DNA of 55,693 nt from a virus (IMGVR_UViG_3300030109_001698:1-55693); one strand, 5' to 3'; positions 1-55,318 are shown, numbered from the stretch's first letter. Program-made: numbers and translations. The notes: generated by a model not told the origin, from the letters alone.

Positions 1-10
1 TATTTTATTA

Positions 11-41
11 TATTATCCAACACTAATCGTATTTAATTTGT
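11..41 (-). promoter_or_regulatory. Early promoter-like motif copy 1 (its gene lies left of the window)
   Basis: + strand TATTATCCA-acactaa-TCGT-atttaat-TTGT; same spacing as 7 other copies. Confidence 0.75.
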
Positions 42-56
42 GATGCGTGTATAGCA

Positions 57-197
57 CTATTTATCATACCACACTCCGTATACTTTACAACCGTGATGTG
101 TGGTACAAAACAGTTTTCTTTTTATTTCTTTAGGTTTATTTACCTGGCTTTTGTCCCAGTATTTAGGATTCTTACTGTTTAGTTTTTTCTTTTTCAT
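57..197 (-). CDS. Small basic hypothetical protein (46 aa, MKKKKLNSKNPKYWDK...GVWYDK)
   Basis: Translated by hand, below ORF-track cutoff; fits the packed minus-strand gene run. Confidence 0.6.
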   Translation of the reverse strand: MKKKKLNSKNPKYWDKSQVNKPKEIKRKLFCTTHHGCKVYGVWYDK

Positions 198-312
198 TGT
201 ATTTCTTTATATTATTATTAAATATATTTCTTCTTATACTACATTTTATTTGTGAGGTAACATACATTCCTATTACAATACCTACACCTAATACTATTAT
301 TAATTCTATCAT
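172..312 (-). CDS. Small single-TM protein (46 aa, MIELIIVLGVGIVIGMYVTSQ...)
   Basis: Translated by hand; hydrophobic N-terminus; ATG just after the upstream stop. Confidence 0.6.
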   Translation of the reverse strand: MIELIIVLGVGIVIGMYVTSQIKCSIRRNIFNNNIKKYNEKEKTKQ

Positions 313-313
313 A

Positions 314-925
314 TTATTTTACTTTATATCTATGTCCATCTATTATTATTTCTACTGAACTTGGTGGTTCTTCTGTCCATTTATTCCAATAAGCATGTTG
401 CTCATGTACAAATACATCACCGTTTTCTAAGTTTTCTATCTGACCACCTGAGTATTTGAAATTAACCATATCTTCAGTATCTTGACACCTAAGGAAATTA
501 CCTAGTTTTGCTTCATGAACCCATTTAGGTACAAACTTACCATCTTCTATCATATTCGCTTGTTTAATATAATAGTTTTTGAGACAATAGTCTATTAAGT
601 ATTGTAATCTTTTTCTAGTACTATTTAACTTTATACGTTTTTTACTTTCAAATTTATTGTATTTACCTGTCCACTCTTGTTTCATTGTTCCTGTTATCCA
701 CTTGTAATCTTTATAATACTCTACATGTTGTTCGCATTTATTTAGTTGATACGCAGTATGTCCACCATTCATTCTTCTTACATAACCTGACTCAAACGAA
801 CCAACCTCTATGTATTCACCATATTGTTTAATTGGTAGTCTATATATTCTCGTACCATTACTTATTTGTTTATCAGTTGTAATATCCTTCCAACCTAATA
901 AATCTATTTGTTCTTTTAGTGTCAT
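314..925 (-). CDS. Hypothetical early protein (~203 aa)
   Basis: Track ORF 314..958; ATG at 925 (MTLKEQ) preferred because the upstream ORF stops at 927. Confidence 0.75.
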   Translation of the reverse strand: MTLKEQIDLLGWKDITTDKQISNGTRIYRLPIKQYGEYIEVGSFESGYVRRMNGGHTAYQLNKCEQHVEYYKDYKWITGTMKQEWTGKYNKFESKKRIKLNSTRKRLQYLIDYCLKNYYIKQANMIEDGKFVPKWVHEAKLGNFLRCQDTEDMVNFKYSGGQIENLENGDVFVHEQHAYWNKWTEEPPSSVEIIIDGHRYKVK

Positions 926-926
926 A

Positions 927-1097
927 TTATTTCTTTTCATTAACTTCTTGAATATCAATTAGTTGTGTCATGTAGTCACCATTATCTATCAACTCTATTT
1001 GTAAGTTTATAATCGCTTGTTTTTCGGTTACACCTTCTATTTCTACCATAGTTTTCATACTTATACAGTCTCTGTATACAATTTCATAATTTTTCAT
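927..1097 (-). CDS. Hypothetical protein (56 aa, MKNYEIVYRDCISMK...EVNEKK)
   Basis: Translated by hand; A-rich leader, fills the gap between neighbours. Confidence 0.65.
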   Translation of the reverse strand: MKNYEIVYRDCISMKTMVEIEGVTEKQAIINLQIELIDNGDYMTQLIDIQEVNEKK

Positions 1098-1115
1098 AGT
1101 TTTATTTTTTATTAA

Positions 1116-1358
1116 TTAGTTATTATCTTCATTTAAAAACCTATCACCGAACATATCTTCCCAGTCCATATCTGTTAGACACATATTAGTCCATGTAAAG
1201 AAGTCTCGTAATGTTTCTACAGTTAATTCACCCCAAAACTTATTATCTTGTAGTTTTTTTCTAATGTTTTGTGGGCCGTGTGTATAGCAACCTGAGTCTA
1301 TATACTCTTGTACTATAATTTTATACTCTGGTTTGAGTCTGTTCCATAAGTTATCCAT
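1116..1358 (-). CDS. Hypothetical early protein (80 aa)
   Basis: ORF track; directly downstream of the motif at 1381. Confidence 0.75.
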   Translation of the reverse strand: MDNLWNRLKPEYKIIVQEYIDSGCYTHGPQNIRKKLQDNKFWGELTVETLRDFFTWTNMCLTDMDWEDMFGDRFLNEDNN

Positions 1359-1380
1359 ATTATTATATTTTATTTGTTTA

Positions 1381-1411
1381 TATTATCCATTAGTAATCGT
1401 ATTCAATCCGT
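1381..1411 (-). promoter_or_regulatory. Early promoter-like motif copy 2
   Basis: TATTATCCA-ttagtaa-TCGT-attcaat-CCGT; overlaps the 3' end of ORF 1390..1683. Confidence 0.8.
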
Positions 1412-1683
1412 AATAGATCACGGTTCTCTTCAGACATAACTTCTAAATTATAAATGTAGTTTTCGTAATGACTAGAATCTACTCTTTCACTCCAAATATC
1501 TTCATTCATCCATTCTATTATGTCTTCACAAGTATTTATATTTTCTCTAATTACATTTTCAATCTTATAGTTTTGTAGTACGTTATTTAATTCTTTATCA
1601 GTTTGAACAAAGAACATACATATTACCCCGATAGTAAAACCAAATATACCACCTATTATTGTTGTTTGTGTTTCTATTTTCAT
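1390..1683 (-). CDS. Membrane-anchored hypothetical protein (97 aa)
   Basis: N-terminal TM (IIGGIFGFTIGVICMFFV), acidic helical tail. Confidence 0.75.
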   Translation of the reverse strand: MKIETQTTIIGGIFGFTIGVICMFFVQTDKELNNVLQNYKIENVIRENINTCEDIIEWMNEDIWSERVDSSHYENYIYNLEVMSEENRDLLRIEYDY

Positions 1684-1694
1684 ATTTTTTTTAT

Positions 1695-1913
1695 TTAGTC
1701 AATTTCATCACAGTTTTCACACTCATCTTTATAATATTCATTAATTAAACTATCTCTTTCGTACATATAATCTATCCATAGTTTATCTAGTTTATAGTTT
1801 ATTTTAACTTGTTTCTGTGTTACTTGAGTAGTTCCACAACTCATCATCATTAGTCCTAAAACTAAAGATATCCACGTTATTATAAATATATTTCTACTTT
1901 TTCTTTCACTCAT
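1695..1913 (-). CDS. Putative lipoprotein (72 aa)
   Basis: Basic N-terminus, hydrophobic stretch, lipobox-like MMS-C-GTT. Confidence 0.65.
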   Translation of the reverse strand: MSERKSRNIFIITWISLVLGLMMMSCGTTQVTQKQVKINYKLDKLWIDYMYERDSLINEYYKDECENCDEID

Positions 1914-1917
1914 AATT

Positions 1918-1998
1918 TTATTGTTTTCTATTTAATATTATACTTATCATTACTACAAAATATACTAATAGTAATATTCCTTTTATATATACTTCCAT
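1918..1998 (-). CDS. Possible 26-aa hydrophobic peptide (MEVYIKGILLLVYFVVMISIILNRKQ)
   Basis: Translated by hand; TAATG coupling to the upstream stop, fills the gap. Confidence 0.45.
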   Translation of the reverse strand: MEVYIKGILLLVYFVVMISIILNRKQ

Positions 1999-2249
1999 TA
2001 ATCTAGTCCGTCTCTATTACCTCTTAGTATACCACTCTTCTTGTCGTGTTGGTGGAGGTCGTGTATAGCACTCGAAAGAGGACTTATCTCACGTTTAACT
2101 TCGTTATCCCATATTTCTTGGGCCTCTTTATTTACTACTGGTGGAAGTAAATAATAACCTAAGTGATGTTCTTGACCGAAACTATCTATCACATGGACAT
2201 TATAGTGTGTATTACCTTCGTACTTATCTATTATTATTCTTCTACTCAT
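1998..2249 (-). CDS. Hypothetical early protein
   Basis: Track ORF 1998..2273 starts at GTG; ATG at 2249 (MSRRII) has an A-rich leader. Confidence 0.7.
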   Translation of the reverse strand: MSRRIIIDKYEGNTHYNVHVIDSFGQEHHLGYYLLPPVVNKEAQEIWDNEVKREISPLSSAIHDLHQHDKKSGILRGNRDGLD

Positions 2250-2295
2250 TTTCTTATTTGTTTTATAATCCACTTTTCGTTATAACTTTTCTTTT

Positions 2296-2553
2296 TCATA
2301 ATTTTTCTACTTTTTCACCGTTAACAATTAGTTCGTACTCACCATATTCTTTACGAGTCTTTACATACTCTAACGGAAACTCTTGGTGAGTCTTAAATGA
2401 AGAATATCCATTTGGTCCTTCACTTAGTATTTCTACATCACCATAACCTACCCAGTAAGGATTGTGGTTCATCTCTACTATTATTTGTTTTTTTTCTTTT
2501 ACGTTACTATAGTCTTGTTGTAAGAACATAGTTTTTAATTCTTGTCTAGTCAT
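2296..2553 (-). CDS. Hypothetical early protein (85 aa)
   Basis: ORF track, operon packing. Confidence 0.75.
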   Translation of the reverse strand: MTRQELKTMFLQQDYSNVKEKKQIIVEMNHNPYWVGYGDVEILSEGPNGYSSFKTHQEFPLEYVKTRKEYGEYELIVNGEKVEKL

Positions 2554-2555
2554 AG

Positions 2556-2702
2556 TTATATATCTTTATCTGTTAATAAATCTTTTATTTCGTCTTGTGC
2601 ACTTTCCAACCATTTATCTATACAATCAGTGTATGGATCGAAGTCTGGTAAGTATTTAATTAATAATCTTTTTAATTCTTTAAGTTCAGTTAGTTTGTTC
2701 AT
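2556..2702 (-). CDS. Hypothetical protein (48 aa, MNKLTELKELKRLL...DKDI)
   Basis: Translated by hand; ATG about 15 nt downstream of the motif at 2718. Confidence 0.65.
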   Translation of the reverse strand: MNKLTELKELKRLLIKYLPDFDPYTDCIDKWLESAQDEIKDLLTDKDI

Positions 2703-2717
2703 AATTTTATTTTATTA

Positions 2718-2748
2718 TATTATCCAATAGTGTTTGTATTCAGTCCGT
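2718..2748 (-). promoter_or_regulatory. Early promoter-like motif copy 3
   Basis: TATTATCCA-atagtgt-TTGT-attcagt-CCGT. Confidence 0.8.
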
Positions 2749-2755
2749 AAAAGTG

Positions 2756-2798
2756 TGACAAAAGGGTGTTACTCTATTTCCTTAACACCCTAATGTCA
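2756..2798. other. Intergenic inverted repeat (stem-loop)
   Basis: TGACA-aa-AGGGTGTTA ... TAACACCCT-aa-TGTCA, 3' of ORF 2811..3062. Confidence 0.65.
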
Positions 2799-2810
2799 TA
2801 CTCCAACTAA

Positions 2811-3062
2811 CTAAACTAGTTCCTTACCTCTTAGTATCATTGGTATATTATTGGTCGCGGTGTAAGACTTATACTTTTCCCAACATGGTAGAGTAGTCAA
2901 AGTTTCTTTCATTATATCGAATACTTTATCGTGGTTATAAGTTATTTCTTTACCTTTTTTCGTTACGAAAGTTATAATTTGGTTTTTACCGATTAATGAC
3001 TTTCTTACTACAAATCTTTTAGATTTTAATACATTTACTGTGTTTTTTTCTTTGTTTTTCAT
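2811..3062 (-). CDS. Basic early protein, paralog of 4139..4363
   Basis: Shares KRFVxRKSLIG, TKKGKExTYNHDxV, KYKSYTxTNNIP. Confidence 0.85.
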   Translation of the reverse strand: MKNKEKNTVNVLKSKRFVVRKSLIGKNQIITFVTKKGKEITYNHDKVFDIMKETLTTLPCWEKYKSYTATNNIPMILRGKELV

Positions 3063-3107
3063 AATTTTTTTAGTTTAGTTTAGTTTATATTTATTTTATT
3101 ACATTTA

Positions 3108-3138
3108 TATTATCCAATACTTTTCGTTTTTGTTCCGT
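3108..3138 (-). promoter_or_regulatory. Early promoter-like motif copy 4
   Basis: TATTATCCA-atacttt-TCGT-ttttgtt-CCGT. Confidence 0.8.
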
Positions 3139-3188
3139 AAAAGTATATTATTTGTTTAGTTGATATTTTTAGTTAGTAGGTATTAGTC

Positions 3189-3434
3189 TTACCTTGATTG
3201 TGTATGACTAAAACTTTTATGGAATACTAGTCTATCTTTGAAATTATTATAATCAAAATACTTATTATTATTATAGTGTTCGTCGAGACTTATATAACAG
3301 TAACCTTTTATATTTAAGTGTTCAGTATAATACTTATCAAACCATTTTGGTAATTGGTGTAATTGGTATGGTAAATAAATTTTATTATTTAATTTAATAA
3401 TTTGAAGAGAGGAGAATTTAATTTTATTATTCAT
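3189..3434 (-). CDS. Hypothetical early protein (81 aa)
   Basis: ORF track; directly downstream of the motif at 3448. Confidence 0.7.
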   Translation of the reverse strand: MNNKIKFSSLQIIKLNNKIYLPYQLHQLPKWFDKYYTEHLNIKGYCYISLDEHYNNNKYFDYNNFKDRLVFHKSFSHTQSR

Positions 3435-3447
3435 AACTTTTTTATAT

Positions 3448-3478
3448 TATTATCCAAACCACTTCGTCGCTCCTCCGT
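3448..3478 (-). promoter_or_regulatory. Early promoter-like motif copy 5
   Basis: TATTATCCA-aaccact-TCGT-cgctcct-CCGT. Confidence 0.8.
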
Positions 3479-3562
3479 GTCTCGGTGCTATACACCACAC
3501 ACCTTCGGTGTTCAGTCGGTGTGCCTCGCTTGTATGGACAATGAAGTTCCAATCGTTTATTA

Positions 3563-3593
3563 TATTATCCAAAGAGTGTCGTCGCTCCTCCGT
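3563..3593 (-). promoter_or_regulatory. Early promoter-like motif copy 6 (no ORF directly downstream)
   Basis: TATTATCCA-aagagtg-TCGT-cgctcct-CCGT; 17 bp identical to copy 5. Confidence 0.8.
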
Positions 3594-3620
3594 GTTGCTA
3601 TACACTTCGTGCTATACACG

Positions 3621-3636
3621 AGTGCCTTTCGGCACT
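3621..3636 (-). other. GAAA-tetraloop hairpin 3' of ORF 3644..3799
   Basis: Minus strand AGTGCC-GAAA-GGCACT; no U-tract. Confidence 0.55.
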
Positions 3637-3643
3637 TCATGTT

Positions 3644-3799
3644 TTACAGTAACTCAACTGACATGTTTAATGAATCCCACAAGTCTCCATACTCAGACTC
3701 ATAGATATTATCAAGAGTATACACTGTGTTGTTGATAGTCATTTCATAGATGTCATTATCTTCATCTAGTTTTATTGTAATTATAGGTTTTAGTTTCAT
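3644..3799 (-). CDS. Small acidic protein (51 aa, MKLKPIITIKLDEDNDIYEM...VELL)
   Basis: Translated by hand; A-rich leader. Confidence 0.65.
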   Translation of the reverse strand: MKLKPIITIKLDEDNDIYEMTINNTVYTLDNIYESEYGDLWDSLNMSVELL

Positions 3800-3824
3800 A
3801 GTTTTAATTTTATTTAGTTAGTTA

Positions 3825-4055
3825 TTATATATTAATAATTAGATATGATAATTCTACATCTTTAGATATATGATGAGAGAATGGTATTTTATTATTTAAT
3901 AATTCTATCATAATTTCTTTTATATTACTAGTATATTCGAACACTACTATAGAATCGTCATCATGGTGTGGATGTAGTTCTCTTTCTACTTCACAGTCGA
4001 TTAGATAGTGGTATTCAGAGTCTGATAGTTTTGGTAAATTAATTAGTTTAGTCAT
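3825..4055 (-). CDS. Hypothetical early protein (76 aa)
   Basis: ORF track; downstream of the motif at 4091. Confidence 0.75.
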   Translation of the reverse strand: MTKLINLPKLSDSEYHYLIDCEVERELHPHHDDDSIVVFEYTSNIKEIMIELLNNKIPFSHHISKDVELSYLIINI

Positions 4056-4090
4056 AGTTTTATTTATTTAGTTAGTTATTTATTTATATA

Positions 4091-4121
4091 TATTATCCAA
4101 TTATATTAGTATTCTCTCTGT
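4091..4121 (-). promoter_or_regulatory. Early promoter-like motif copy 7 (degenerate)
   Basis: TATTATCCA-attatat-TAGT-attctct-CTGT. Confidence 0.7.
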
Positions 4122-4138
4122 ATTCCAAACACTCTGTA

Positions 4139-4363
4139 TTATCTACAGAATGTTGGAATGTTATTTGTATTTGTGTATGACTTATACTTCTTGAAACAGT
4201 TCATAGATTCAAATCTATCTTTATTTCTTTCATACACTTCATCATGGTTGTAAGTAACTTCTTTACCTTTCTTAGTAGTGAATGTGATGATTGTGTTTGT
4301 ACCAATTAGAGATTTTCTGATTACAAATCTTTTAGTAATAATTTTGTTTAGTTTAGTTTTCAT
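4139..4363 (-). CDS. Basic early protein, paralog of 2811..3062; first gene of the minus arm
   Basis: Aligns by eye to 2811..3062. Confidence 0.85.
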   Translation of the reverse strand: MKTKLNKIITKRFVIRKSLIGTNTIITFTTKKGKEVTYNHDEVYERNKDRFESMNCFKKYKSYTNTNNIPTFCR

Positions 4364-4401
4364 AATTTATTTATTTATTTAATTAATATTCTATTCATAT
4401 A

Positions 4402-4432
4402 TATTATCCATCATCAGTCGTCACTGCTCCGT
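4402..4432 (-). promoter_or_regulatory. Early promoter-like motif copy 8
   Basis: TATTATCCA-tcatcag-TCGT-cactgct-CCGT. Confidence 0.8.
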
Positions 4433-4439
4433 GTCTATG

Positions 4440-4785
4440 CTATACATCAGGAGCGGGGGACATTTCCTGAAACATTTGATGGAACATCTATTTGTAGTTG
4501 TTGAGGTTAGATACATTAGTGACTAGATATTACAGGAGCAAGAAGCCAAACGAATAATAAGCAAATCTGTAGGAACCAAAGCGGGGTGGGCAAAAAAAAT
4601 CAATTTCCCTTTTTCAAAAAAAGCGGGGAGGATAGGAGCAGCACCCTACCCCTATATTTATAATGTACTTTTTTTTAGAAGGGCCGCCCCTTTTTATAGA
4701 AGGTACCGTTAAATATAAGCGGGCTATGTTAAATAAAGAAATTAACATGTAATTATTAGTATTAATAACACAAAGACAAGAAATT
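4440..4785. other. Non-coding divergence region with AGCGGG repeats; candidate genome terminus, packaging site or origin
   Basis: No ORF; strand switch; AGCGGG at 4452, 4580, 4622, 4718; A/T tracts. Confidence 0.45.
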
Positions 4786-5244
4786 ATGGGTTATACACCG
4801 TTCAAGATGAAAGGACCTTCTTTATATAATAGTCCAAATAAAAAATTTAAGAATGTAAGTAAAAAAGTATCTAAGGCTATGAAAGATGCTGAAAAAGGAT
4901 ATTCTACACTAGATGCTTTCAACGATGAAGGTAAAATAAGTAAGGTGGACATTTCAAATAGAATGCTAGACAAAGAAATAGAAAGAAGAAAGAGTGGAGG
5001 TAAAGTAGGGACGGTTTCGTCTCCTGGTGATGAATATATGAAGAAACTAAACAGAAAAGATCGAAACGTACACTATGACCCAAAAAATAATACACAATAT
5101 AGAACGTTTCACGACAAAAAAAACAACATGGTCTACATGCATAATAGAAACGCGTTACTAGGTGAAAAAACCGTGGATCATCCTAAATATGGCCCTCAAA
5201 CTACTGGAGAATATAAAGATATAACAGGTAAGAAAGGAAAATAA
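4786..5244 (+). CDS. Basic protein with FKMKG/SPxK leader
   Basis: MGYTPFKMKGPSLYNSPNK. Confidence 0.8.
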   Translation: MGYTPFKMKGPSLYNSPNKKFKNVSKKVSKAMKDAEKGYSTLDAFNDEGKISKVDISNRMLDKEIERRKSGGKVGTVSSPGDEYMKKLNRKDRNVHYDPKNNTQYRTFHDKKNNMVYMHNRNALLGEKTVDHPKYGPQTTGEYKDITGKKGK

Positions 5245-5474
5245 TGGCCGAAAAACGACCAGGTAACTCACAAGGGCTTAGTCCAACAGCTTTAAGAGCT
5301 AAACGAGCAAGAGACAAAGCTGCGGCTATGACCACTAAAAGAAAAAATAGAAAAGCAGAGAATCAGAGGATAGGACAAAGACCAGATAGTGATCTACATC
5401 ACACATCATCAGGTACAGTAAAAAGAACATCGATAGCTTATAACAGAGCGACACACGATAGAAAAGAAGTATAA
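5244..5474 (+). CDS. Small basic protein, possible degenerate HNH-like motif
   Basis: Arg/Lys rich; DLHH...YNR; coupled via TAATG. Confidence 0.65.
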   Translation: MAEKRPGNSQGLSPTALRAKRARDKAAAMTTKRKNRKAENQRIGQRPDSDLHHTSSGTVKRTSIAYNRATHDRKEV

Positions 5475-5475
5475 T

Positions 5476-5982
5476 ATGAAGAAATACGAACCGTTTAAAA
5501 TGAAGGGACACGAATTACCTGGGCCGAACCAAAGAAGTTCATCTCCGGTTAAAAATGTTGATGCTGACCCTAAATCGTATTTAGATGAAAGCGGTAGAAG
5601 AGTATATGGTGATGCTCATGCTAATACGGGTATAGAAGGTACTTCTGAAGGAGTTAGAGGTTCTGGTAGTAACTGGAGAGAAGCTACTTATTCGGATACG
5701 TCGCCAATGGCAGGTAAAACTTATCGTAATATATCAAGTCAAGACGTAGATATGGATAAATTAATAAGTGCTTCAGCCGGTGCTGATAACGTGGTAACTA
5801 AAACACAAGCTGGTATAGGTGCTATTCCAGTAGACCCAGTACAATCTGATTTTGTTCCTGAAGGAACAGAAACTGGAGGCGCACTTATGGATAGGAAAGA
5901 TAATTATAGTGGTTTAGGAAAAGCTATGGTTAAAAAAGAAAACGTAGACGTTGAAGTAACAGTAAACGGTAAAAAAATATAA
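5476..5982 (+). CDS. Protein with FKMKG/SPxK leader
   Basis: MKKYEPFKMKG...SSSPVK. Confidence 0.8.
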   Translation: MKKYEPFKMKGHELPGPNQRSSSPVKNVDADPKSYLDESGRRVYGDAHANTGIEGTSEGVRGSGSNWREATYSDTSPMAGKTYRNISSQDVDMDKLISASAGADNVVTKTQAGIGAIPVDPVQSDFVPEGTETGGALMDRKDNYSGLGKAMVKKENVDVEVTVNGKKI

Positions 5983-5984
5983 AT

Positions 5985-6350
5985 ATGGAAAAACCATTTA
6001 AAATGAAAGGACAGCCTTTCAAAAGAAATTTTGGTATAGGTGAAAAAGAATCACCAGCAAAAAACTGGCTTGCTAATGCTGGTAAAGCAATAACAGCAAA
6101 TGTAAAAGAAGCTGGTGGGTGGGGGCAAGTAGCGGCTAAGTCTTTAGCTGCTGGTATGAGAACGCTGAAAGGTGGTTACGATGCTTTTCAACCTACAAAA
6201 GAAAAACAAGAAGAACTTAGTACGTCTCAAATGTTAGAAAACTTCAAACAAGAACTGGATATGGATAATTTAAGTCAAGAGGAAAAAGATATGATAGAAG
6301 ATTTTGAAAACGTAATTAAAAAACAAAACGAATCAGAAGAAGAAGAATAA
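5985..6350 (+). CDS. Protein with FKMKG/SPxK leader
   Basis: MEKPFKMKG...ESPAK, then an Ala/Gly amphipathic segment and acidic tail. Confidence 0.8.
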   Translation: MEKPFKMKGQPFKRNFGIGEKESPAKNWLANAGKAITANVKEAGGWGQVAAKSLAAGMRTLKGGYDAFQPTKEKQEELSTSQMLENFKQELDMDNLSQEEKDMIEDFENVIKKQNESEEEE

Positions 6351-6351
6351 T

Positions 6352-6978
6352 ATGGGATTTAATTTTAAAAAATATAAAGGAGCTGTTACTGGAGACTCAC
6401 CCCTACACAAAGGAGAAAAGGGAGAGGGGTCTGGTAAATCTATAACTAGGAAACAACACGCTGGTGATGTTGGTAGAAGAGCTACAGCTACCAAAGCACA
6501 AGACAGATCTGGTTATTCAAGATCTGGAGGAGATTATATAAACGTACACTCTTTCACGGCTAACACAAGATTGTCACCAAGTTTAGCTAATACATTAGGA
6601 CCTTCTATATCACCAGCTGTTAGAGGCAAGGGCAACAGTGGAAGTGGAGAGTTTGAATTACCAGATATAGATACTACATTAGCAAACTTTGATGTAACTA
6701 CAGAAATAGTAAAAGGAAACAACAAGAAGAAAAGAGGTTTTCAAGAAATTTACGATGAATTCCCTATAGTAAATGGAAAAAGGTACAATAAAAGCACAAA
6801 CACATACTATGACGACCTTCAAGACTTTAAAGATGACGCGGCAAAAAACCCGTCTAAAAGTAGTGGAAAAGATAAAGTTGTAACAACAGTAAAAAAGGAT
6901 GGAAAAGTAATTATTCAATACGAAGGCGAGGGTGGTGATCTGTTTAAACAAGAAGATATATTAGAAAAAAATAAATAA
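6352..6978 (+). CDS. Protein with variant leader
   Basis: MGFNFKKYKG...DSPLHK. Confidence 0.8.
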   Translation: MGFNFKKYKGAVTGDSPLHKGEKGEGSGKSITRKQHAGDVGRRATATKAQDRSGYSRSGGDYINVHSFTANTRLSPSLANTLGPSISPAVRGKGNSGSGEFELPDIDTTLANFDVTTEIVKGNNKKKRGFQEIYDEFPIVNGKRYNKSTNTYYDDLQDFKDDAAKNPSKSSGKDKVVTTVKKDGKVIIQYEGEGGDLFKQEDILEKNK

Positions 6979-10097: not shown

Positions 10098-10170
10098 ACC
10101 TAAACCTAAAACTTAAAACCTAAAACTTAATACAATTAACCTAATTATTAACTAAAAACACTTAGAAATT

Positions 10171-32746: not shown

Positions 32747-32785
32747 CGCATAAAAAGTGTAATTATAGATAAAATAAATAAAATT

Positions 32786-34509: not shown

Positions 34510-37500
34510 ATGGCAGACGATATTAGACCTATAACATTACAAGAGGAAGAAAACAAAAAAATAAACATAAAAAAACAGATTCAAAATATAAGAAATCAGT
34601 ACGAGGAAATATATGGTAATATTTTAGGAGAAAAACAAGTAGATGTTACAACAACTATGAACCAAGATTTAGAATCTGCTTTTAAACCTTTTGTAGACTC
34701 TGATAAATACAGTCAAAAAGAGTTAAAAATTATAAAAGATCATCTTTTAAATACATTAAAAAACGAAAGAACTAGTAGAGGTATGGGTGAAGAAGCCTAT
34801 TCACCACAGCTACTAAAACAACCTTCAATGATTAAGTTTGGTAAATTTATAAAAAGGGAGGTTCCTAAATGGTTTACAGAAGAACACAAACAAAAATATG
34901 GTCAATTTAAATTTTTAGAATTTAATAAAAACTCTTTTACTAACTACTCTTTTGGTAGCAGCGTTGTTCCTTCTAACTCGACAAGTCCAATAAGTTATTA
35001 TGACGACGAGATTTTTGAAACATATGAAACAAGTGACTACAAAGACGAGCTTGAAAAAAGAAAAGAAAATAAATATAGTAGTGATTTAGATTACTTAAGA
35101 GTTTATAACGACGAAACTTTTGGTTTAGATACTGACAACGAGTATGTAGAGATAGATGGTATTAGACGATCTTTAGGTGAAAACGGTGATTTTAAATATG
35201 AAATATATAACATACAAGAAAACGTAGACGAAAATAACAATCCTATTATTGGAGAAAACTTAGAGTTAGCTAGTGAAGAACAAATAGAAAGTTTTGAAGA
35301 TAAATACTACGAGTACGAATATAACGCTGTAAAAAACAGTATTATTAACGACCCTTTATTGACAGCTAGTTCAGATACAGAAATAGACACGTACGTATCT
35401 AGCTCTATTGATCAAGTTAAAGAACAAGAGTTAAATGAAAAAGTAAACAAAGAGGTTGAGAGGGTTATTGAAAATAGTAATATTGTTGAGGCTTTAGAAA
35501 CACCAGAGGATATTGATAAAGTAAGAGATGTTTTAAAAAAAGCATTTTCAAATGTTCACGGAACTAAATCAGATAGAATTAGACTAAGAAAACCACTTGA
35601 AATTCCAAACTCTGTTTTAAAACAGCTTGAAGAAAAAGGAATTAACGTTAATATTTACAAAAAAGGAGAAAATGTAGATTTTTCTATAATATTCAACTTA
35701 GATTCTAGTATGTCTAAAGAAGCTGTATATAGAAACCCTACGGAGGAAGACTTTACGATAACAGACTACATGGAGACAAAGGGCATGTTAAAAGCTGAGC
35801 AGTACGAGAAAGAAATAAAAGAGTTAATGAAAGATGTTCAATTAAAGTTTGACAAAGATACACAAAAAATTAGAAATAAAACAAACAAAGTAGCTCAAAC
35901 CTGGTGGCAACATAAAGCCTTAAACGATTATAGTGAGTTTCTTGGCGACGCTGAAGACGGAGATGGTTTTTTTGTAATAGAAGATCAAAGTAAAGAGAAT
36001 ATAGACAGAATTATAAGCGAATATAAAAAGGCTGGTATTAAACTTAAAATTTATGATAGTGATTTTGGAAAAGGAATTGACTATAAAGATGCTGCCGCTT
36101 ATTATTCTTCAAGAGCGAATTACTACTATGAAAACGACGAGGATTATAAAAAATTATTAGCAGTAGCAGAGTCAACTCAAGAAGAATTAATGAAAAATTA
36201 TTCTTTGAAATTTAAACCAGAATATAAATATCTTGATTCAAATATTACAGATTTTATTAATGAAAAATTAAAAAGCTCTGGTTTTCACAACGCCAATACT
36301 TATGACAAGGCTATGATAACAGACAATATATGGTTAGGTTTAAAAGAATATATAATGTTATCAAACCCAGTTGAAAAAGGAGATCTTGAAGGTCTAAGTA
36401 AGCGTCGAGATATGATATTCAAGCTTCGAGATGAATTTTATTTTTCAATGTTTCACAATCACTTGGCTTTTCGTAAAGATTACACTCAAAAAGCAACCCA
36501 AGAAGATGTTGACGCTGGGGTAGCAACAGAGGTTGGTGGTCCTGTTTATGCTTGGAGTGTTTTTGCATTAAAAGATTTTGCGCGCGATTTAGTGTCGCCA
36601 GAACAAATAAATCTTAGCGATATGATAAATAAAGCTAGTGGAAAAGATAAAAAAAGATTAGAGTTGTTAAGAAGTTTTGCTGAAGAGGTTATAAATGCTG
36701 ATGAAGACATTTTGTTTAAAAAAGACGGTGGTTTTGAATCGTTTATGAAAGGTTTTACAAGTAACAAGTGGTATGAGTATCTTCCGTACGCAGGTTCTAT
36801 TGTGGGTATAAACGATTCTAGGTATATAAAAAACTCTGCAGAAAGAATAAGAGCAGTAGAAAGAAGAGATGCTCTAAACTTTAAAAAATCAAGAGGTATT
36901 AAATTAAGTAGTAACGAAAAAGAAGAGTTAAAACAATTAAATAAGTTGGGTCCTGTTACAGCATCAGATCAACTTATGATGGACATGTACACCTTGAAAA
37001 ACATGATGGATGGTATATTTAGTGAGAGTAGCACCGCTTATAGCGCTGGTAAAATAACAGCTGATATGTTACCTTATCTACCGGAATTTGCTTTATCAAG
37101 CCCTGCTTTTACCTGGGGTAAAGGCGCTAGTTTACATTATGGTAAACAAGTTTTAAATGCATCTGTTAAAGGTGGACTTTTAAATCCAGGCGCATCAATG
37201 TTTGGAGTCAACGCGTTAGCGTTTTCTGTTAAAACTAAAAACACTTTGTCTTGGTTATTAGGAACTGGTGCTCAAACAGCAGTTAATCCACAAATGTATA
37301 TAAAGTATACTATTGAAAACATGACACCCGAAATGCAGTTTGCTTTTTCGGAACAGGCTAATGATATATACAATGCGCTAGATGGTACAACAAGTGTTGA
37401 TAATTTAGAAGAAGGAGAAGTTTACACAGCTAATAACGGTAAAAAATCAAAGTTTAGCGCTAAATGGACTGGCCAAAATCCAGACGGTTTTTTTATAGCT

Positions 37501-37959
37501 TTTGCAAGAGCATACGGTGTTAGTTGGGCAGAAATGGCAACAGAAAGAATTGGTAGTTATTTACCTGGCGCTTTTAAATATATGACAAACGACCAGTTGG
37601 CAGGGTCGAAAACCTTTATGCAAGCAGTTGTATTAAAACAGTTTATGGGTACAAAAAAATATACTAATTGGTTAACAACAAAGAATTTAAAAGCTAATAA
37701 AAAATCTTTATTAAGATATATAACCGAAAACTCTCTAGGTTGGAACGGTTTGCTTTCTGAAATAGCTGAAGAAACTATTAACCAACCTTTGTCTAGTTTA
37801 ATAATGGGTAGACCAATGAACGAGGCTTTTATTGACAACGAAGGTAATTTTGATCCGCAGTTTTTTAAAGAAATGGGAATAGCGATGACAGTTACGTCTT
37901 TAACTTTTGGCGCTGGTAACTATGTTCAAATTAGACGTAAATTAAATAAAAAGAAATAA
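34510..37959 (+). CDS. Large putative ejection protein (1149 aa)
   Basis: Charged helical body; C-terminal Gly/Ala hydrophobic helices with EMATE and EIAEETI motifs. Confidence 0.7.
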   Translation: MADDIRPITLQEEENKKINIKKQIQNIRNQYEEIYGNILGEKQVDVTTTMNQDLESAFKPFVDSDKYSQKELKIIKDHLLNTLKNERTSRGMGEEAYSPQLLKQPSMIKFGKFIKREVPKWFTEEHKQKYGQFKFLEFNKNSFTNYSFGSSVVPSNSTSPISYYDDEIFETYETSDYKDELEKRKENKYSSDLDYLRVYNDETFGLDTDNEYVEIDGIRRSLGENGDFKYEIYNIQENVDENNNPIIGENLELASEEQIESFEDKYYEYEYNAVKNSIINDPLLTASSDTEIDTYVSSSIDQVKEQELNEKVNKEVERVIENSNIVEALETPEDIDKVRDVLKKAFSNVHGTKSDRIRLRKPLEIPNSVLKQLEEKGINVNIYKKGENVDFSIIFNLDSSMSKEAVYRNPTEEDFTITDYMETKGMLKAEQYEKEIKELMKDVQLKFDKDTQKIRNKTNKVAQTWWQHKALNDYSEFLGDAEDGDGFFVIEDQSKENIDRIISEYKKAGIKLKIYDSDFGKGIDYKDAAAYYSSRANYYYENDEDYKKLLAVAESTQEELMKNYSLKFKPEYKYLDSNITDFINEKLKSSGFHNANTYDKAMITDNIWLGLKEYIMLSNPVEKGDLEGLSKRRDMIFKLRDEFYFSMFHNHLAFRKDYTQKATQEDVDAGVATEVGGPVYAWSVFALKDFARDLVSPEQINLSDMINKASGKDKKRLELLRSFAEEVINADEDILFKKDGGFESFMKGFTSNKWYEYLPYAGSIVGINDSRYIKNSAERIRAVERRDALNFKKSRGIKLSSNEKEELKQLNKLGPVTASDQLMMDMYTLKNMMDGIFSESSTAYSAGKITADMLPYLPEFALSSPAFTWGKGASLHYGKQVLNASVKGGLLNPGASMFGVNALAFSVKTKNTLSWLLGTGAQTAVNPQMYIKYTIENMTPEMQFAFSEQANDIYNALDGTTSVDNLEEGEVYTANNGKKSKFSAKWTGQNPDGFFIAFARAYGVSWAEMATERIGSYLPGAFKYMTNDQLAGSKTFMQAVVLKQFMGTKKYTNWLTTKNLKANKKSLLRYITENSLGWNGLLSEIAEETINQPLSSLIMGRPMNEAFIDNEGNFDPQFFKEMGIAMTVTSLTFGAGNYVQIRRKLNKKK

Positions 37960-37960
37960 T

Positions 37961-40900
37961 ATGGCTAAAGGCGCTCCTTATAGAATAAAAATAAAAAATA
38001 AACCTACTAGAGTTTTTCAATCCGAACAGGAAATGAAAGACGCTTTAAGAAACGATCCTGAATTAAGAGACCAGCTTAAAAACAACGAGTATACAATCGA
38101 GACGGATAAGGACGGCCAGTATGTAGTTCCAGAATCATCTAAAATGGTGATGTATGAGACTATAATAATGTTAGAGGATAAAAAAAAGAAAAAGAAAAAA
38201 GAAAAAGAGGTAGAAATTAAGCCAGAAGAAACAAAAGTAGAGGTTAAGCCAGAAGAAACAACTACAGAAGAAGTAACTACCGATCCTGATCAAGCTTACG
38301 AAGAAGCTTACCCAGAAGAAAAAACAGTTATAAAAACAGATCCAGAAAGCGGTGCACAAGAAGTTGTTTTAACAGAAAAAAATAAAGAGCAAGAAAAAGA
38401 AGACTTTACTGATTTTATGCAAATAGGTAAAGAAACAGATCCTGTAACTCAAGCTATGCCAAAGTTTGGTTTATTTGGTAAGCAAATTGACCAAGAAAGA
38501 GTTTACAACTATTGGGAAAACAAGTTGCAGGACATGACAATAAAAAACGAGGAAGAAGTTCTTGATAGAGCTATAGCTGAAGAAATGGAGTTAGTTATGG
38601 AGATGGATAGTAAACTAGCGGAAACTGTAGAGAGTTATGAAGATAAAATAAAAAAACTTACAGATGAAAAAGAAGGACTTGAAGACGAAAAGAAACAAAT
38701 AAAAATTCAGAAACAAATAGATAAACTACAAACTAAAAAGAACGAAGTTTTAGAACCTGTTAGAAAAAAAATAAAAGATAAAAAACAAGTAGATATTTTT
38801 AATGAAAGACTTGCTAGAGTAGAAGAAATATCGAAACAAATATTTGGTGAGCAGTTTGAGTTTGATATCGCGGAGACTGGTGAAGAGTACGTAGAAAAGT
38901 TTGAATTAGATTTAATAAGACAAGTTGAGGAGTTAGATGTTTTGATAAACGAAACTACTGATCCAAAAAAGAAAAATGAGTTATACGAACAAAGAAGAGC
39001 TATTCAAAACGAGTTAAATGAACTTGAAGGTTATTTTCTTAACGAAAAAGGAGAATCAAAATTTAACGAAGCAAAAAGAGAAAACAAATTAAAACAGTTA
39101 AAAGAAAAAACACATGGCAACATGAGTATTGATGGTATGAAAGCTGTTATTAATGTCGCAGCTTCGTTATCAGAAGGAGGAAATATAAACGTTGCTGCTC
39201 ATGAGTTTTTACACAAGTTACTTTTGAATACCATTAGAAATAATGATAATATAAGAATTGTATTAGGATCAAATTTACATAAATATATAGCTAAAATCGA
39301 TCCTAACTTGGTTCAAAATAGTGATTTTAGAAGACGTTTAGTTTCTTACGGTAACAATATAGAACTTATAAATGAATTAGTAGGACGGTTAAACGAAGCT
39401 AGACAAGAGGGAAATACAGAATTAGCTAAAAAGCTAGAAAAACAAAGAGTAAAATTAGAAAGTAGCTTTGAAAACGGTTCTCAAGCTGAAGAAGTTTTAA
39501 CGTTGTTTTCAGACGCTATATACTATAACGAAGTAACATTTAATGAAAATCTTTATACTAAACTAGGTGATATGTTTAGGCGTATATTTAGATCTTTTGG
39601 TGTTACCGCTAAATGGGCTAACCCTAGAGACGTTTATAATTTTATAAGAGATTACAACAATACTATTGAAACGGGTAGAGGTGTTGCTGCTTTAATAAAA
39701 GAAGGTAGAGAGGGTGTGACATTAAAAGGTGATATAAAACAACAAATAGATATAGAATCTGGAGACGCGCCTAAAAAACGTAGACGTAAAAAAAGGTTTA
39801 CAATATTTCAATCTAAATCAGACGCAGAATCCGTAAACAATATATATCAAGAAAAAGGTAAAGATGGTGCTTTTGATATTGCAGAGGAGTACCGTGGTAT
39901 GGCAAACAAAATATATGATAGATATGTTTCGCAACTACCTAGAGATTTACAAGCTTGGATTAAGCAGCAAGATAATTTTAGAGAAGACTTAATTAACGGT
40001 ATATTATTTGCTAGTTATAAGTTTATTAACGAAGGAAACGCTAACAGAAGTGTTGTTGGTATGGTTCAAAATGAATTTGTTGAAGCTAGACAGACTTATG
40101 GTAATTTAGCCGCTTATATAAATAAGTTTATATCATTAAGAGCAATACAAGAGTTTAAAGATAATCTACCACAAGAAGCTAAACTACCTGAACCAACTGA
40201 GCCAACTGAAACAAAGCCTGAGGAGCAAGTAAGAAAAGGTAAAATAGCACTAAAAGAATTAAAACAAGAAGAAACACAAGAAGATGTAAAAAATATTGTT
40301 CGTACAAGCGGTGTAAAACTTCCTGCGGAACCAAGTTATAAAGATGTTAAAAATTTAATAACTAGTCACGATGGGGCTAAAAAATCAAAACGTATTCCTA
40401 CTGGTGAGTTGTTTCCAGTTTTAGAAAAAATATGTGAAGATTTATTTGGTGACGCTAGTATAGCCCTAAGATTAGTTAGAGAAGTAGATCTTACTAAAAG
40501 CCAAAGAGCTGCAATTCAAGATTATATACGTAGAAAACATATAGAGCTTATTACCTATGTAATACCTGAAGGTACTTCAAAAGAAGGTAAGGCTACTGGC
40601 GCGGCAAACACTAAGTTAGGTGTACTTTATACAGAAGGCGCTAGAACAAAAACAGGGCCAGGATTAAAAGAGCAAAAGAAACTACATATAGATCCAGCGT
40701 TTTTGTTAGAGCAAGCTGGTATGGTTAAGGGACAACCTACTATAACTACCACTAAAGTTGATCCGTTTTTAAGATCAATGGCTATTCAAATAGGTGTTAT
40801 AGCCTCTAATCAAGCTATAAGACAAGAAAAAGAATATCTTAATCTTACGGAGCTACAAGTTATTAGACTAAAAGATGGTAAGCCTAAATTAGCTTATTCT

Positions 40901-48525: not shown

Positions 48526-49640
48526 AAAAACTATTACTATTATTACTAACTATTTTAATGTCTTGCGCCACTACAAAAACTTGTTGTGGACAGTTTAGTT
48601 ATAAAGGTTATGATTATGATATTCAAGATATTTTAAAAAATCAATTAAAGTTCTCTACTATATACGGAGCGGTAAACGGTGGTACATCTATATCTGACAT
48701 TAAACAGTTTTCAGTTATAGACGGTTTACAAACATCAATGATAGAAACTCCTTATGATTATTCTTTTACTTTAGGTATAAGAAAAATTGCAAGGTTTGGA
48801 TATGAAAATAAAGCCCAAACATTTTACGATGGTACAGAATCTAACTACACAGACGCTGCTACTGTAGGTAAAGTACAGGGTTTTGAATATTTATTTGAAA
48901 TAGACTACGCTAGACAGCAGGGTTTAGATTATATAGACCAACATCATTTTATTAGATACAGTTCTGATGATAATTGCGATGGACCTTTATGTATAGATCA
49001 CTTCGCTGCTAAAGTAGAATATTTAAAAGATGGTTTCGCTGATGTAGAGTATTTCGAGTTATCAGAAAGGTATAGATACAAGAAAGACAAAAACTTAGCG
49101 TTTAGTATAGGTGCTGCGCATAGACTGGCAGAGCCATACGGTTATGATCCGCTAAAAGAATGGATCTTGGATAATGGCAATTTGCATTACACTTACTTAG
49201 CAATACAAGAGGGGTATACGATAGATGTAGCAAATAGTGAGTATAAAGATCCAAGCGGAAACACCGTTGCTAACAGTGCTGACGTTTGGAAAGAAGTTGT
49301 TATACCACAAGTACTAGCGGATTATACTACAAGAAAAAGAAACGAATTAAGTAGAGTTATACAGCATTCATTGGTGATAGGTTTTGATTACTATAACTAC
49401 AGTAAGAGTTATTGGTTACATGCTTGGGGTAATTTACTACCTTACCACTACAACGATGGTAGTGAGTTTAGCTATCATAATTATATAGACGAAGATCAAT
49501 GGTATGATTATTCTGGTGGAATTATATTTGGTAGAAAGTTAGATAAACAATTAGGTATATTTGCAGAAGGTAAATATAATAAGTATTGGAATAGAGAATG
49601 GTATGATTTTAAGTTTGGCGTTAACTATATAATAAGATAA
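48522..49640 (+). CDS. Putative outer-membrane beta-barrel protein
   Basis: Signal peptide; Tyr/Gly-rich alternating strands; ends YDFKFGVNYIIR. Confidence 0.7.
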   Translation: MKKLLLLLLTILMSCATTKTCCGQFSYKGYDYDIQDILKNQLKFSTIYGAVNGGTSISDIKQFSVIDGLQTSMIETPYDYSFTLGIRKIARFGYENKAQTFYDGTESNYTDAATVGKVQGFEYLFEIDYARQQGLDYIDQHHFIRYSSDDNCDGPLCIDHFAAKVEYLKDGFADVEYFELSERYRYKKDKNLAFSIGAAHRLAEPYGYDPLKEWILDNGNLHYTYLAIQEGYTIDVANSEYKDPSGNTVANSADVWKEVVIPQVLADYTTRKRNELSRVIQHSLVIGFDYYNYSKSYWLHAWGNLLPYHYNDGSEFSYHNYIDEDQWYDYSGGIIFGRKLDKQLGIFAEGKYNKYWNREWYDFKFGVNYIIR

Positions 49641-55080: not shown

Positions 55081-55106
55081 AAAAAAAGGGGCGTTAGCCC
55101 CTTTAA
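55079..55106. terminator. Terminator between convergent arms (probably bidirectional)
   Basis: A-tract-AAAGGGGC-GTTA-GCCCCTTT; long U-tract on the minus strand. Confidence 0.85.
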
Positions 55107-55307
55107 TTATATAGTAACAGAATTTTTTTGGTTTTGAATTTCAACTCTAATCTGTTGCGCTAAGTTTTTTACTTTTTGCATTGATTTTCTAACCCGTGTT
55201 CCTGCCGAGTTATTACCTTCAACAAATTTTTCTGCATCAGGCATGACTTTTTCAAATTCATCACCCATTTTTTGGAACAATTTAATTACATTATTTTCTC
55301 CGTACAT
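55107..55307 (-). CDS. Histone H1-like (Hc1 family) DNA-binding protein
   Basis: DAEKFVEGNNSAGTRVRKSMQ...R.EIQ, the Bacteroidota Hc1-type signature. Confidence 0.85.
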   Translation of the reverse strand: MYGENNVIKLFQKMGDEFEKVMPDAEKFVEGNNSAGTRVRKSMQKVKNLAQQIRVEIQNQKNSVTI

Positions 55308-55318
55308 ATTTATTTTAT

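Follow-up and report, generated by a model that had tools for sequence, protein, structure and literature searches.

A rigidly spaced promoter-like element in an uncultured marine phage clade with a crAss-like structural module, and a phage sigma factor as its candidate reader

The locus and its eight spaced elements

The phage record IMGVR_UViG_3300030109_001698, analysed over its whole length of 55,693 bases and called the window below, is taken up for the most part by a nearly gapless plus-strand operon (4786-55080), to the left of which a cassette of about 15 small open reading frames (ORFs; 46-214 aa) without family assignment runs leftward on the minus strand (57..4363). The subject of this study is an element repeated within that cassette. 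The sequence TATTATCCA begins at positions 11, 1381, 2718, 3108, 3448, 3563, 4091 and 4402, every copy lying on the plus strand within 1-4432, and it is followed at constant distances by two further short boxes, giving TATTATCCA-N7-TCGT-N7-CCGT (31 nt). Read along the minus-strand genes, the eight sites take the form ACGGA/ACAAA/ACAGA-N6-(A/G)AC(G/A/T)A-N7-TGGATAATA-(T/A)A.

The eight copies of TATTATCCA compare with 1.00 expected (sd 0.91, maximum 4), and the eight matches to the 31-nt pattern, with at most two mismatches allowed, compare with 0.03 expected; in neither case did any of 100 dinucleotide shuffles reach eight. Over the whole record the pattern occurs eight times forward and not at all in reverse, and the backwards-read control gave 0 and 0. 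Spacing is identical at all eight sites, with TCGT exact at 6/8 and CCGT at 6/8. Five sites match exactly (1381, 3108, 3448, 3563 and 4402), site 2718 has one mismatch (TTGT), and two mismatches are present at site 11 (TTGT for CCGT) and at site 4091 (TAGT, CTGT). A weight matrix derived from the wider family described below found only these eight sites in the window, at 7.6-37 bits with the next best at -0.8; among 20 shuffles, one reached 16.8 bits. A preliminary description of this DNA had listed the same eight positions, the fixed spacing and the counts of exact boxes, all of which hold, and the scan of the whole record that it proposed added no further site. Its statement that all copies point along minus-strand genes, six of them close to an ATG, is likewise borne out: measured from the end of TGGATAATA, the distance to the next minus-strand ATG is 13-45 nt at six sites, as listed here.

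11-41, minus strand: putative promoter copy 1, ACAAA-N6-TACGA-N7-TGGATAATA, with the best matrix score (37 bits); predicted start about 5; the gene that follows falls outside the record, past its left edge
1381-1411, minus strand: putative promoter copy 2; distance to the ATG at 1358 (80-aa ORF), 22 nt; predicted start about 1375; the upstream boxes overlap the final codons of ORF 1390-1683
2718-2748, minus strand: putative promoter copy 3, with ACAA as its middle box; distance to the ATG at 2702, 15 nt; predicted start about 2712
3108-3138, minus strand: putative promoter copy 4, with TAAATGTAA after it; distance to the ATG at 3062, 45 nt; predicted start about 3102
3448-3478, minus strand: putative promoter copy 5, of the G+C-rich type (ACGGAGGAGCGACGA); distance to the ATG at 3434, 13 nt; predicted start about 3442
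3563-3593, minus strand: putative promoter copy 6, G+C-rich variant, with no ORF before the next copy; predicted start about 3557; heads a non-coding stretch of about 100 nt (3457-3557) that ends at copy 5
4091-4121, minus strand: putative promoter copy 7, in which the boxes read ACAGA and ACTA; distance to the ATG at 4055, 35 nt; predicted start about 4085
4402-4432, minus strand: putative promoter copy 8, G+C-rich variant and first after the divergence point, 38 nt before the ATG at 4363; predicted start about 4396

The G+C-rich sub-type, ACGGAG(G/C)AG(C/T)GACGA, is represented by three of the eight sites (3448, 3563 and 4402). The non-coding stretch that follows copy 6 has homologues in two loci only (G002 and L013), and its fold gave z = -0.79.

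Conservation in relatives and anatomy of the element

In a scan of IMG/VR the exact pattern was found once in each of eight contigs. G001, G002 and G003 from among them, together with a fourth genome reached through the large terminase (TerL; G004), carry 3-8 copies each at no more than three mismatches, and these four are relatives (TerL 70-90% identical). G005 was set aside as an unrelated contig with a single chance match. Searching IMG/VR for AATACGA-N7-TGGATAATA yielded at least 119 stretches, mostly marine phage contigs of 60-72 kb, a lower bound for loci selected by part of the motif. Throughout the family the motif is sense-oriented and lies just upstream of small ORFs, whose module and a crAss-like structural operon point away from each other.

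The family logo, built from 290 distinct TGGATAATA sites, reads tatTACAAAcTAAATACGA-N7-TGGATAATAtaaatgtaa, and ACGA lies exactly 7 bases upstream in 253 of them. It is bipartite rather than tripartite, TACAAAcTAAATACGA-N7-nnGATAATA. The preliminary description had proposed three boxes 11 bp apart, on one face of the helix; this is a simplification that fits the present phage, whereas the relatives conserve the 16-nt upstream block in its entirety, plus GATAAT. In 58 loci picked through a sigma protein (see below), and thus independently of the motif, TGGATAAT occurs 133 times in sense and 21 times in antisense orientation, with ACGA exactly 7 nt upstream in 69 of the 133 sense copies. The TG of TGGATAATA is variable in the wider clade: in some sub-lineages, and even within one genome, the two bases before GATAAT are TA, AA, TT, AG or CG instead. 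As read from these sites, what never varies in the clade is GATAATA, upstream of which all 16 nt of the block are conserved together. Differing as they do within single genomes, the two bases do not lend themselves to a comparison with the sigma factor.

The motif is lacking from the three cultured or named relatives that were inspected, MW202828, phi38:1 and elemo. The freshwater phage MW202828 (L098, 1500-8400) has a perfect palindrome, GTGTCGTTAACGACAC, before eight early genes, 20-25 nt from the ATG, and tblastn found no sigma homologue in it. The genome of phi38:1 (L106, 11900-34000) has some 12 copies of AAACACTATCAAAA in front of leftward genes, 10-20 nt from their start codons; since a time-course transcriptome of this phage has been published, the role of AAACACTATCAAAA is testable on public data. 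No early-gene repeat was found in elemo. The literature consulted, which did not extend to the supplementary tables of the phi14:2 and phi38:1 papers, contains no description of the motif or of the transcription signals of these phages, and among the matches listed the 9-mer does not appear in a phage-promoter context.

The behaviour of the sites relative to genes was assessed with the 233 family sites that have enough flank. An ATG-initiated ORF of at least 30 aa begins within 200 nt of 228/233, and within 50 nt of 206/233 as against 60/233 for random positions in the same loci. Orientation is mixed in only one of 59 loci with several sites, and the downstream ORFs vary between loci and are without family assignment. 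In light of this single orientation, the closeness to genes and the conservation before unrelated ORFs, it was concluded that the sites are very probably promoters. Metagenome contigs, moreover, join different cassettes at these points, a pattern as expected if promoters head exchangeable cassettes of early genes. The preliminary description had called them early promoters: the promoter behaviour stands, and by gene order the module matches the early module of phi14:2, while the early timing is itself deduced.

If the T of TGG is given offset 0, ORF starts show a sharp peak at offset 14 (43/233, against a mean of 3.7 per offset and six at offset 12), and RTGTAA is found at offset 12 in 70/233 family sites. 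A start codon 5 nt after the motif requires transcription to begin at or before offset 14, and GATAAT at offsets 2-7, taken as a -10 element, would place the start at about 13-15; the two constraints meet at offset 14. This suggests that transcription starts at about offset 14, some 5 nt past the motif, and that GATAAT is a -10-like hexamer within TGGATAATA, at -12 to -7. On this numbering ACAAAC (ACGGAG in the present phage) would lie at about -36 to -31 and AAATACGA at -29 to -22, so that the 16-nt block TACAAAcTAAATACGA (ACGGA...ACGA in the present phage) would extend from about -37 to -22, covering the usual -35 position and eight bases more. Promoters of the sigma-70 family in general have two conserved elements about 17-19 bp apart and a start 6-8 nt after a -10 hexamer with A at position 2 and T at position 6; GATAAT has A2 and T6, a spike of ORF starts 7 nt after it and ACAAAC 18-19 bp upstream of it, the start site being a predicted one. 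The motif, its conservation, its orientation, its proximity to genes and the presence of a sigma gene in relatives are observed directly, while the start site and the -10 assignment derive from sequence statistics, and the early timing and the reader of the motif are likewise deduced. On the predicted start, about a fifth of the family's messages would be leaderless; for Flavobacterium psychrophilum the published figure is 5.5%.

Several other kinds of site were considered and rejected. A sigma-54 promoter has GG at -24 and GC at -12, 10 bp apart, and would need TTGC after TGG, where instead aTGTa stands 12-14 nt on, in 70/233 sites only and, by our alignment, with the register off by one. N4-type promoters, which are read by a virion polymerase, have a conserved DNA hairpin with a 5-7 bp stem and a 3-nt loop; in a test of single-stranded DNA folding, seven of the eight sites gave z between -0.81 and +0.99, and the remaining one (3098-3147) gave z = -2.67. 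A promoter for a T7-like single-subunit polymerase was dismissed after Pfam found no RNA-polymerase family among the window ORFs scanned or the 25 ORFs of the leftward module of G001; the AATACGA common to the motif and the T7 promoter is presumably a resemblance and nothing else.

Candidate readers of the element

The likely host bears directly on which enzymes could recognize the motif. The rightward operon encodes GroEL, the large terminase, portal and capsid-type proteins, a 2118-aa protein carrying the C-terminal domain of the crassvirus muzzle, and two giant proteins of 1149 aa (34510-37959) and 2378 aa (37961-45097); the gene order of this structural operon is collinear with that of the crAss-like Cellulophaga phage phi14:2. 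By TerL, the closest named phages are MW202828 (64%) and then the Flavobacterium phages 'elemo' (46%), with further relatives among phages of Maribacter, Cellulophaga (the phi13:2 group, and phi38:1/phi40:1 of Pervagoviridae) and Tenacibaculum, and Flavobacteriia are the hosts of every cultured one. A Shine-Dalgarno-like core precedes only one of 62 start codons, and the 20 nt upstream of starts are 60% A. Bacteroidota-type start regions and Flavobacteriia-infecting relatives together make a host among the Flavobacteriia likely. Small motif-bearing contigs have also been binned into metagenome-assembled genomes (MAGs), five of them (L235, L241, L252, L263 and L289) in one Bacteroidetes MAG and two (L304 and L306) in a Flavobacteriaceae MAG, which lends weak backing to such a host.

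Promoters of the Bacteroidota housekeeping factor, sigma-A, have TTG at -33 and TAnnTTTG at -12 to -5. As the preliminary description had stated, the motif does not resemble them: TAnnTTTG is in register at 0/8 sites, the family logo shows GATAATAtaaat where the sigma-A box would be, again with no TAnnTTTG, and the upstream element is TACAAAC or ACGGA, not TTG or TTTG. The A+T-richness, the A at about -11, the T at about -7, the short 5' leaders and the scarcity of Shine-Dalgarno sequences are common to both, while the absence of TTTG, the replacement of TTG and the additional conserved AAATACGA set the phage element apart. TTG-N17-21-TAnnTTTG is not in excess in the window, nor is it enriched in the sigma loci (14 sense and 64 antisense in 802 kb), and a scan of 1-5000 for promoters of the Escherichia coli type gave 38 against 32.6 expected. 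As a positive control, g070, g075, g108, g110, g092 and g093 of phi14:2 all show TAnnTTTGTA; the middle and late promoters of that phage are canonical TTG...TAnnTTTGTA and stand upstream of genes shown by the authors to depend on host polymerase. The part of the F. psychrophilum account that could be consulted lists sigma-A, one sigma-54 and seven extracytoplasmic function (ECF) sigmas, with no sigma-28, and six promoter classes (three TAnnTTTG variants, a sigma-54 type at -24/-12, TAnnTTGY and an ECF type with CGT), none of which the motif matches. In 596 Gb of prokaryote genomes the motif yields mostly single matches per record, as by chance, so that no host regulon is visible; the few records with several matches are contigs of small size that were binned with Bacteroidetes or Flavobacteriaceae. 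To judge by sequence, the ordinary host holoenzyme does not read the motif.

The clade itself has a sigma factor. In the complete relative G001 the leftward module continues beyond the motif-rich 5 kb with a ligase, a 360-aa protein, a 254-aa sigma (55470-56234), ERF and an exonuclease, and after these a primase-helicase, thymidylate synthase and ribonucleotide reductase. The 254-aa protein has Sigma70_r2 and Sigma70_r4 domains (TIGR02937 at 53.3 bits, cut-off 42.9), and its best solved relative is FliA (1rp3, E = 2.4e-8). Homologues are present in all 11 complete motif-bearing relatives tested (G001 and 10/10 further) and in 58 IMG/VR loci, and in none of 50,697 cultured phage records. Sense motif sites number 90 in the region 2.2-9 kb upstream of the sigma gene and one downstream of it. 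The complete relative G009 has two sigma-like genes near its opposite ends (3695-4444 and 64909-65658), 56% and 54% identical to the query; these could be paralogues or an effect of assembly or of a terminal repeat.

The scan of the window ORFs found neither replication genes nor a sigma gene. Since replication genes are missing, the genes at the right end are convergent with the large operon, the left end lies only 10 nt from a motif copy and complete relatives measure 65-72 kb, it was concluded that the record is incomplete and cut inside the leftward module, and that its completeness estimate of 94% looks too high. In four metagenome runs, contigs end or fork precisely where the motif is repeated, with loose ends at 41, 2698 and 2731, and contig joints link different cassettes at promoter copies (for example 1403 to 4355, 2297 to 3888 and 3647 to 4138). 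Given these breaks, the left end of the record is probably an assembly break at a repeat. The early region (window 1-4800) is a strain-level mosaic in which the repeat defeats assemblers. From the relatives, the sigma gene of this genome would be expected in its missing part.

The explanation favoured here, though tentatively and with somewhat less than even confidence, is that the motif is read by host core polymerase carrying a non-host sigma specificity, for which the phage sigma is the best candidate, because the geometry is that of the sigma-70 family, the sequence is foreign to flavobacterial sigmas, the clade has a group 3-like sigma, and relatives without a detectable sigma homologue carry other repeats or none. 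The eight sites would accordingly form part of a promoter class private to one clade of marine phages, which is abundant, uncultured and 60-72 kb in genome size, has a crAss-like structural module and probably infects Flavobacteriia. GATAAT in TGGATAATA would act as the -10 of each site, the 16-nt block TACAAAcTAAATACGA would span about -37 to -22 in keeping with sigma-70-family geometry, and transcription, starting about 14 nt after the T of TGG, would proceed leftward on the minus strand into the cassette of small early genes. Host core RNA polymerase with the clade's FliA-like sigma would recognize the motif; the sigma gene would lie further downstream in the same leftward module, missing from this record, and the first sigma molecules might be packaged in the virion or made by leaky host transcription.

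Phage-private promoters read by phage factors of the sigma-70 family are known from Bacillus phage SPO1 (gp28) and coliphage phiEco32 (gp36). The present case resembles them in a rigid phage-specific consensus before many genes, a -35/-10-like geometry and a sigma gene in the clade. It differs in that there host-type promoters act earliest and the phage sigma later, whereas here the private motif heads the first genes and the sigma operon, and no host-type promoter was found. FliA (sigma-28) promoters have the consensus TAAA-N15-GCCGATAA, and share with the motif a GATAA core and an upstream TAAA, FliA also being the best solved relative of the phage sigma; by our count on the logo, however, TAAA stands 4 bp closer to GATAA than in FliA promoters, and the flavobacterial sigmas listed in the F. 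psychrophilum account, as far as available, include no sigma-28.

A number of observations weigh against the phage sigma as reader. A motif copy heads the sigma-containing operon in about 38 of 46 loci, so the circuit would need a seed, and no consistent host-type promoter precedes that operon: TAnnTTTG is present in 11/46 loci, and this candidate, TATCTTTGTAGG, was rejected as coding sequence (Cys-Ile-Phe-Val-Gly) that is broken in L402. The window ORFs scanned include no sigma gene in this incomplete record, and the co-occurrence of sigma and motif may reflect shared descent only. The usual phage logic, with host sigma early and phage sigma later, fits the gene order too. The 50-kb rightward operon has no motif copy, and something else must read it, and the eight conserved bases at about -29 to -22 are left unexplained by a simple -35/-10 model. 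The only RNA run, metatranscriptome X20, contained about 5% of the sampled words as contigs of strains 90-99% alike; these contigs cannot show starts or strand, and no transcript 5' end was seen. One of them, over ORF 1116-1358, stops about 13 nt past the ATG and short of the motif, which agrees with the predicted start and proves nothing.

Some of these difficulties would disappear if the early promoters were read by a holoenzyme already present in the cell, with sigma-A tolerating a GATAAT-type -10, or an alternative host sigma, and possibly a host protein on the -37 to -22 block, and the phage sigma served middle or late genes. There would be no seed problem, the gene order (motif promoters, sigma gene, then the rest) would be that of a classical cascade, the motif-free rightward operon would leave the phage sigma a job, and by our alignment GATAAT has A at -11 and T at -7, as TAnnTTTG does. 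This reading is rated a little below that of the phage sigma as reader, as the motif falls outside the six F. psychrophilum classes of the available account, is unlike the host-dependent promoters of phi14:2 and has no visible regulon in the 596 Gb of prokaryote genomes. A common host sigma would, moreover, hardly predict that phages of the same host class differ as they do, with GTGTCGTTAACGACAC in MW202828, AAACACTATCAAAA in phi38:1 and no repeat in elemo. A comparable layout is known from T4 middle promoters, where MotA and AsiA appropriate sigma and a -10 is combined with a conserved box centred near -30 that replaces the -35. It would account for the 16 nt conserved between -37 and -22; the ORFs scanned here, whose early members are without detectable relatives in the libraries searched, gave no match to a MotA- or AsiA-like family.

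The preliminary description had held that the promoters need a phage factor present at the start of infection. That part did not fare well: no virion polymerase was found, and the sigma gene lies behind the same promoters, so that such a factor is possible and finds no support in the virion module. In phi14:2 early transcription is carried out by the virion RNA polymerase gp66, and the early transcripts, in the part of that report available, have no common upstream motif (bioRxiv 10.1101/2020.03.07.982082). The two phages share a layout in which small early genes, leftward or rightward and without host-type promoters, diverge from a GroEL-TerL-portal-capsid-tail operon; they differ in the very strong motif found here and in the lack of a detectable gp66-like polymerase in the record. 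In its strong form, the proposal of the preliminary description amounts to an injected reader other than a sigma. This might be a very divergent virion polymerase, or the 1149- or 2378-aa protein might have a domain that modifies the host enzyme. Such a reader would suit promoters that are phage-specific and unlike those of the host, in a module collinear with one that a virion polymerase transcribes, and with two giant proteins in the place of gp65-gp67. The record, although incomplete, contains the structural module, the site of the gp66 gene in phi14:2. DFDxD is absent from all six frames of the window, the only D[FYWLM]DxD being DLDND in a 407-aa ORF, phmmer with phi14:2 gp66 (C-terminal 1578 aa) and gp65 found no significant similarity in the window, the 2378-, 1149- and 732-aa proteins have no PDB sequence match, and neither the window ORFs scanned nor the early module of G001 gave an RNA-polymerase match in Pfam or PHROG. 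On these grounds the giant proteins were rejected as RNA polymerases. The 2378-aa protein contains HExxH, a HAD-like stretch (DxDxT) and a C-terminal part that is hydrophobic and conserved. Its family numbers 1804 modular giants of 1300-4150 aa, some with kinase or Zeta-toxin/AAA_33 marks, which are plausible ejected effectors. Of the 1149-aa protein only the last ~330 residues are common to 59 proteins (other giants), with a weak LPD14 match; AlphaFold2 rendered this C-terminal domain as all-helical at a mean pLDDT of 58.5, too poor for a fold search. Both look like ejected polyvalent proteins. The absence of hairpins at 7/8 sites and a predicted geometry suited to a sigma-dependent enzyme also speak against a reader of this kind, which is judged unlikely. 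Injection of the sigma or specificity subunit itself, redirecting host core polymerase to the private GATAAT class from the first minute with no host-type early promoter, is similarly given little credence.

Least probable of the explanations weighed is that the boxes are mainly regulator sites, for a repressor, activator or DnaA-like protein or as origin iterons, placed over weak promoters that go unrecognized. The upstream block is longer than a -35 element, a GTGTATAGCA element stands beside four of the eight copies in either orientation, and TTATCCA equals the first seven of the nine bases of the DnaA box, whose consensus is TTATCCACA with a conserved CACA half. Box positions 8-9 vary among the eight sites, however, and the CC of TTATCC varies across the clade, which removes the DnaA box, and the single orientation before ORFs argues likewise against a DnaA-box cluster or iterons. 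The short fixed distance to ORFs and the one-offset spike indicate an element that defines a start site, and no alternative promoter is visible nearby.

Neighbouring features and the place of the element in phage biology

Further elements accompany the sites, and other features lie along the record.

3486-3495, minus strand: GTGTATAGCA element, 2-6 nt upstream of the ACGG box
3596-3605 (minus), 3610-3619 (minus), 4438-4447 (minus, one mismatch) and 47-56 (plus, beside copy 1): further GTGTATAGCA copies
1280 and 2061: two GTGTATAGCA copies inside ORFs
3620-3637, minus strand: strong stem-loop GUGCC-GAAA-GGCAC, z = -5.48, with 0/200 shuffles folding as well
4531-4559, plus strand: possible degenerate rightward-facing copy, TACAGGAG...AAGA...CGAATAATA, weak, recognized by comparison with the rightward copies of relatives
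4581-4612, plus strand: G-rich element GCGGGGTGGGCAAAAAAAATCAATTTCCCTTTTT at the head of the rightward operon
About 55081-55105: predicted bidirectional terminator between the big operon and the genes converging on it
55107-55307, minus strand: Hc1 histone-H1-like 66-aa ORF
55319-55693, minus strand: open-ended ORF with a signal-peptide-like start

With at most one mismatch, GTGTATAGCA has 10 matches in the window against 3.8 expected, seven of them within 1-4450. It lies just upstream of sites 3448, 3563, 4402 and 11, and the same arrangement is found in relatives. The stem-loop at 3620-3637 stands between the ORF ending at 3644 and promoter copy 6 and may mark a transcript end; no U-run follows it.

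At the divergence point several relatives have a full promoter copy facing rightward (L099 at 8145, which is G001, and L355, L357, L378, L382, L384 and L387). Directly after it comes a G-rich, GGGGCCCGGG-like element that is conserved, and in some of these relatives GCGTTTTT as well. The window has the G-rich element and at most a degenerate rightward copy, with its spacing off and missed by the weight matrix. Rightward copy and G-rich element may together constitute a short terminated leader of the 50-kb structural operon in the style of antitermination; a rightward promoter and a G-rich leader with a T-run might thus feed that operon. RTGTAATWAT(T)AGTA occurs at 4755-4770 and 32757-32766, as well as in G001, G002 and L042, where it precedes one internal gene as well as the first rightward gene at a distance of 25-35 nt, and is a candidate promoter element of the structural operon. 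RTGTAATWAT was not enriched: nine sense and three antisense copies occur in 827 kb, and the window has four where 2.9 are expected.

Two leftward ORFs, 2811-3062 and 4139-4363, are paralogous, the first leftward gene being duplicated. It is kept in G001 (48535-48762), has the motif KRFVIRKSLIG...TYNHD and matched no family; of the early genes seen, none is better conserved. Four successive small proteins that open the structural operon (4786-6978) form a paralogous family with a common N-terminal motif, PFKMKG in three and FKKYKG in the fourth, which might target them to the virion. A 73-nt gap (10098-10170) before ORF 10171 contains three tandem-like AACCTAAAAC(TT)A units. The minus-strand genes at the right end (55107-55693) run towards the big operon. 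Neither Rfam nor a tRNA scan gave a match in the window.

Phage-private promoters and phage sigmas are kinds already known. The present case differs from them in four ways: in the phylum of the host, in the sequence (an E. coli-like GATAAT -10 where TAnnTTTG prevails), in an additional block conserved from -29 to -22, and in where the motif stands, ahead of the first genes of all and of the sigma operon. The motif repeats also account for assembly breaks in the early region of these phages. How transcription starts in crAss-like and related Bacteroidota phages is poorly understood, and for an abundant marine clade (at least 119 motif stretches and 58 sigma loci in IMG/VR) there is now a sharp 40-bp element with a predicted start and a candidate reader, a motif that is well defined, widespread and directly testable. 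Were the sigma injected, it would represent a third strategy of early transcription, beside host-sigma early promoters and injected RNA polymerases. If the phage sigma reads the motif, the two would make an orthogonal promoter/sigma module for Flavobacteriia, in which E. coli expression signals reportedly fail.

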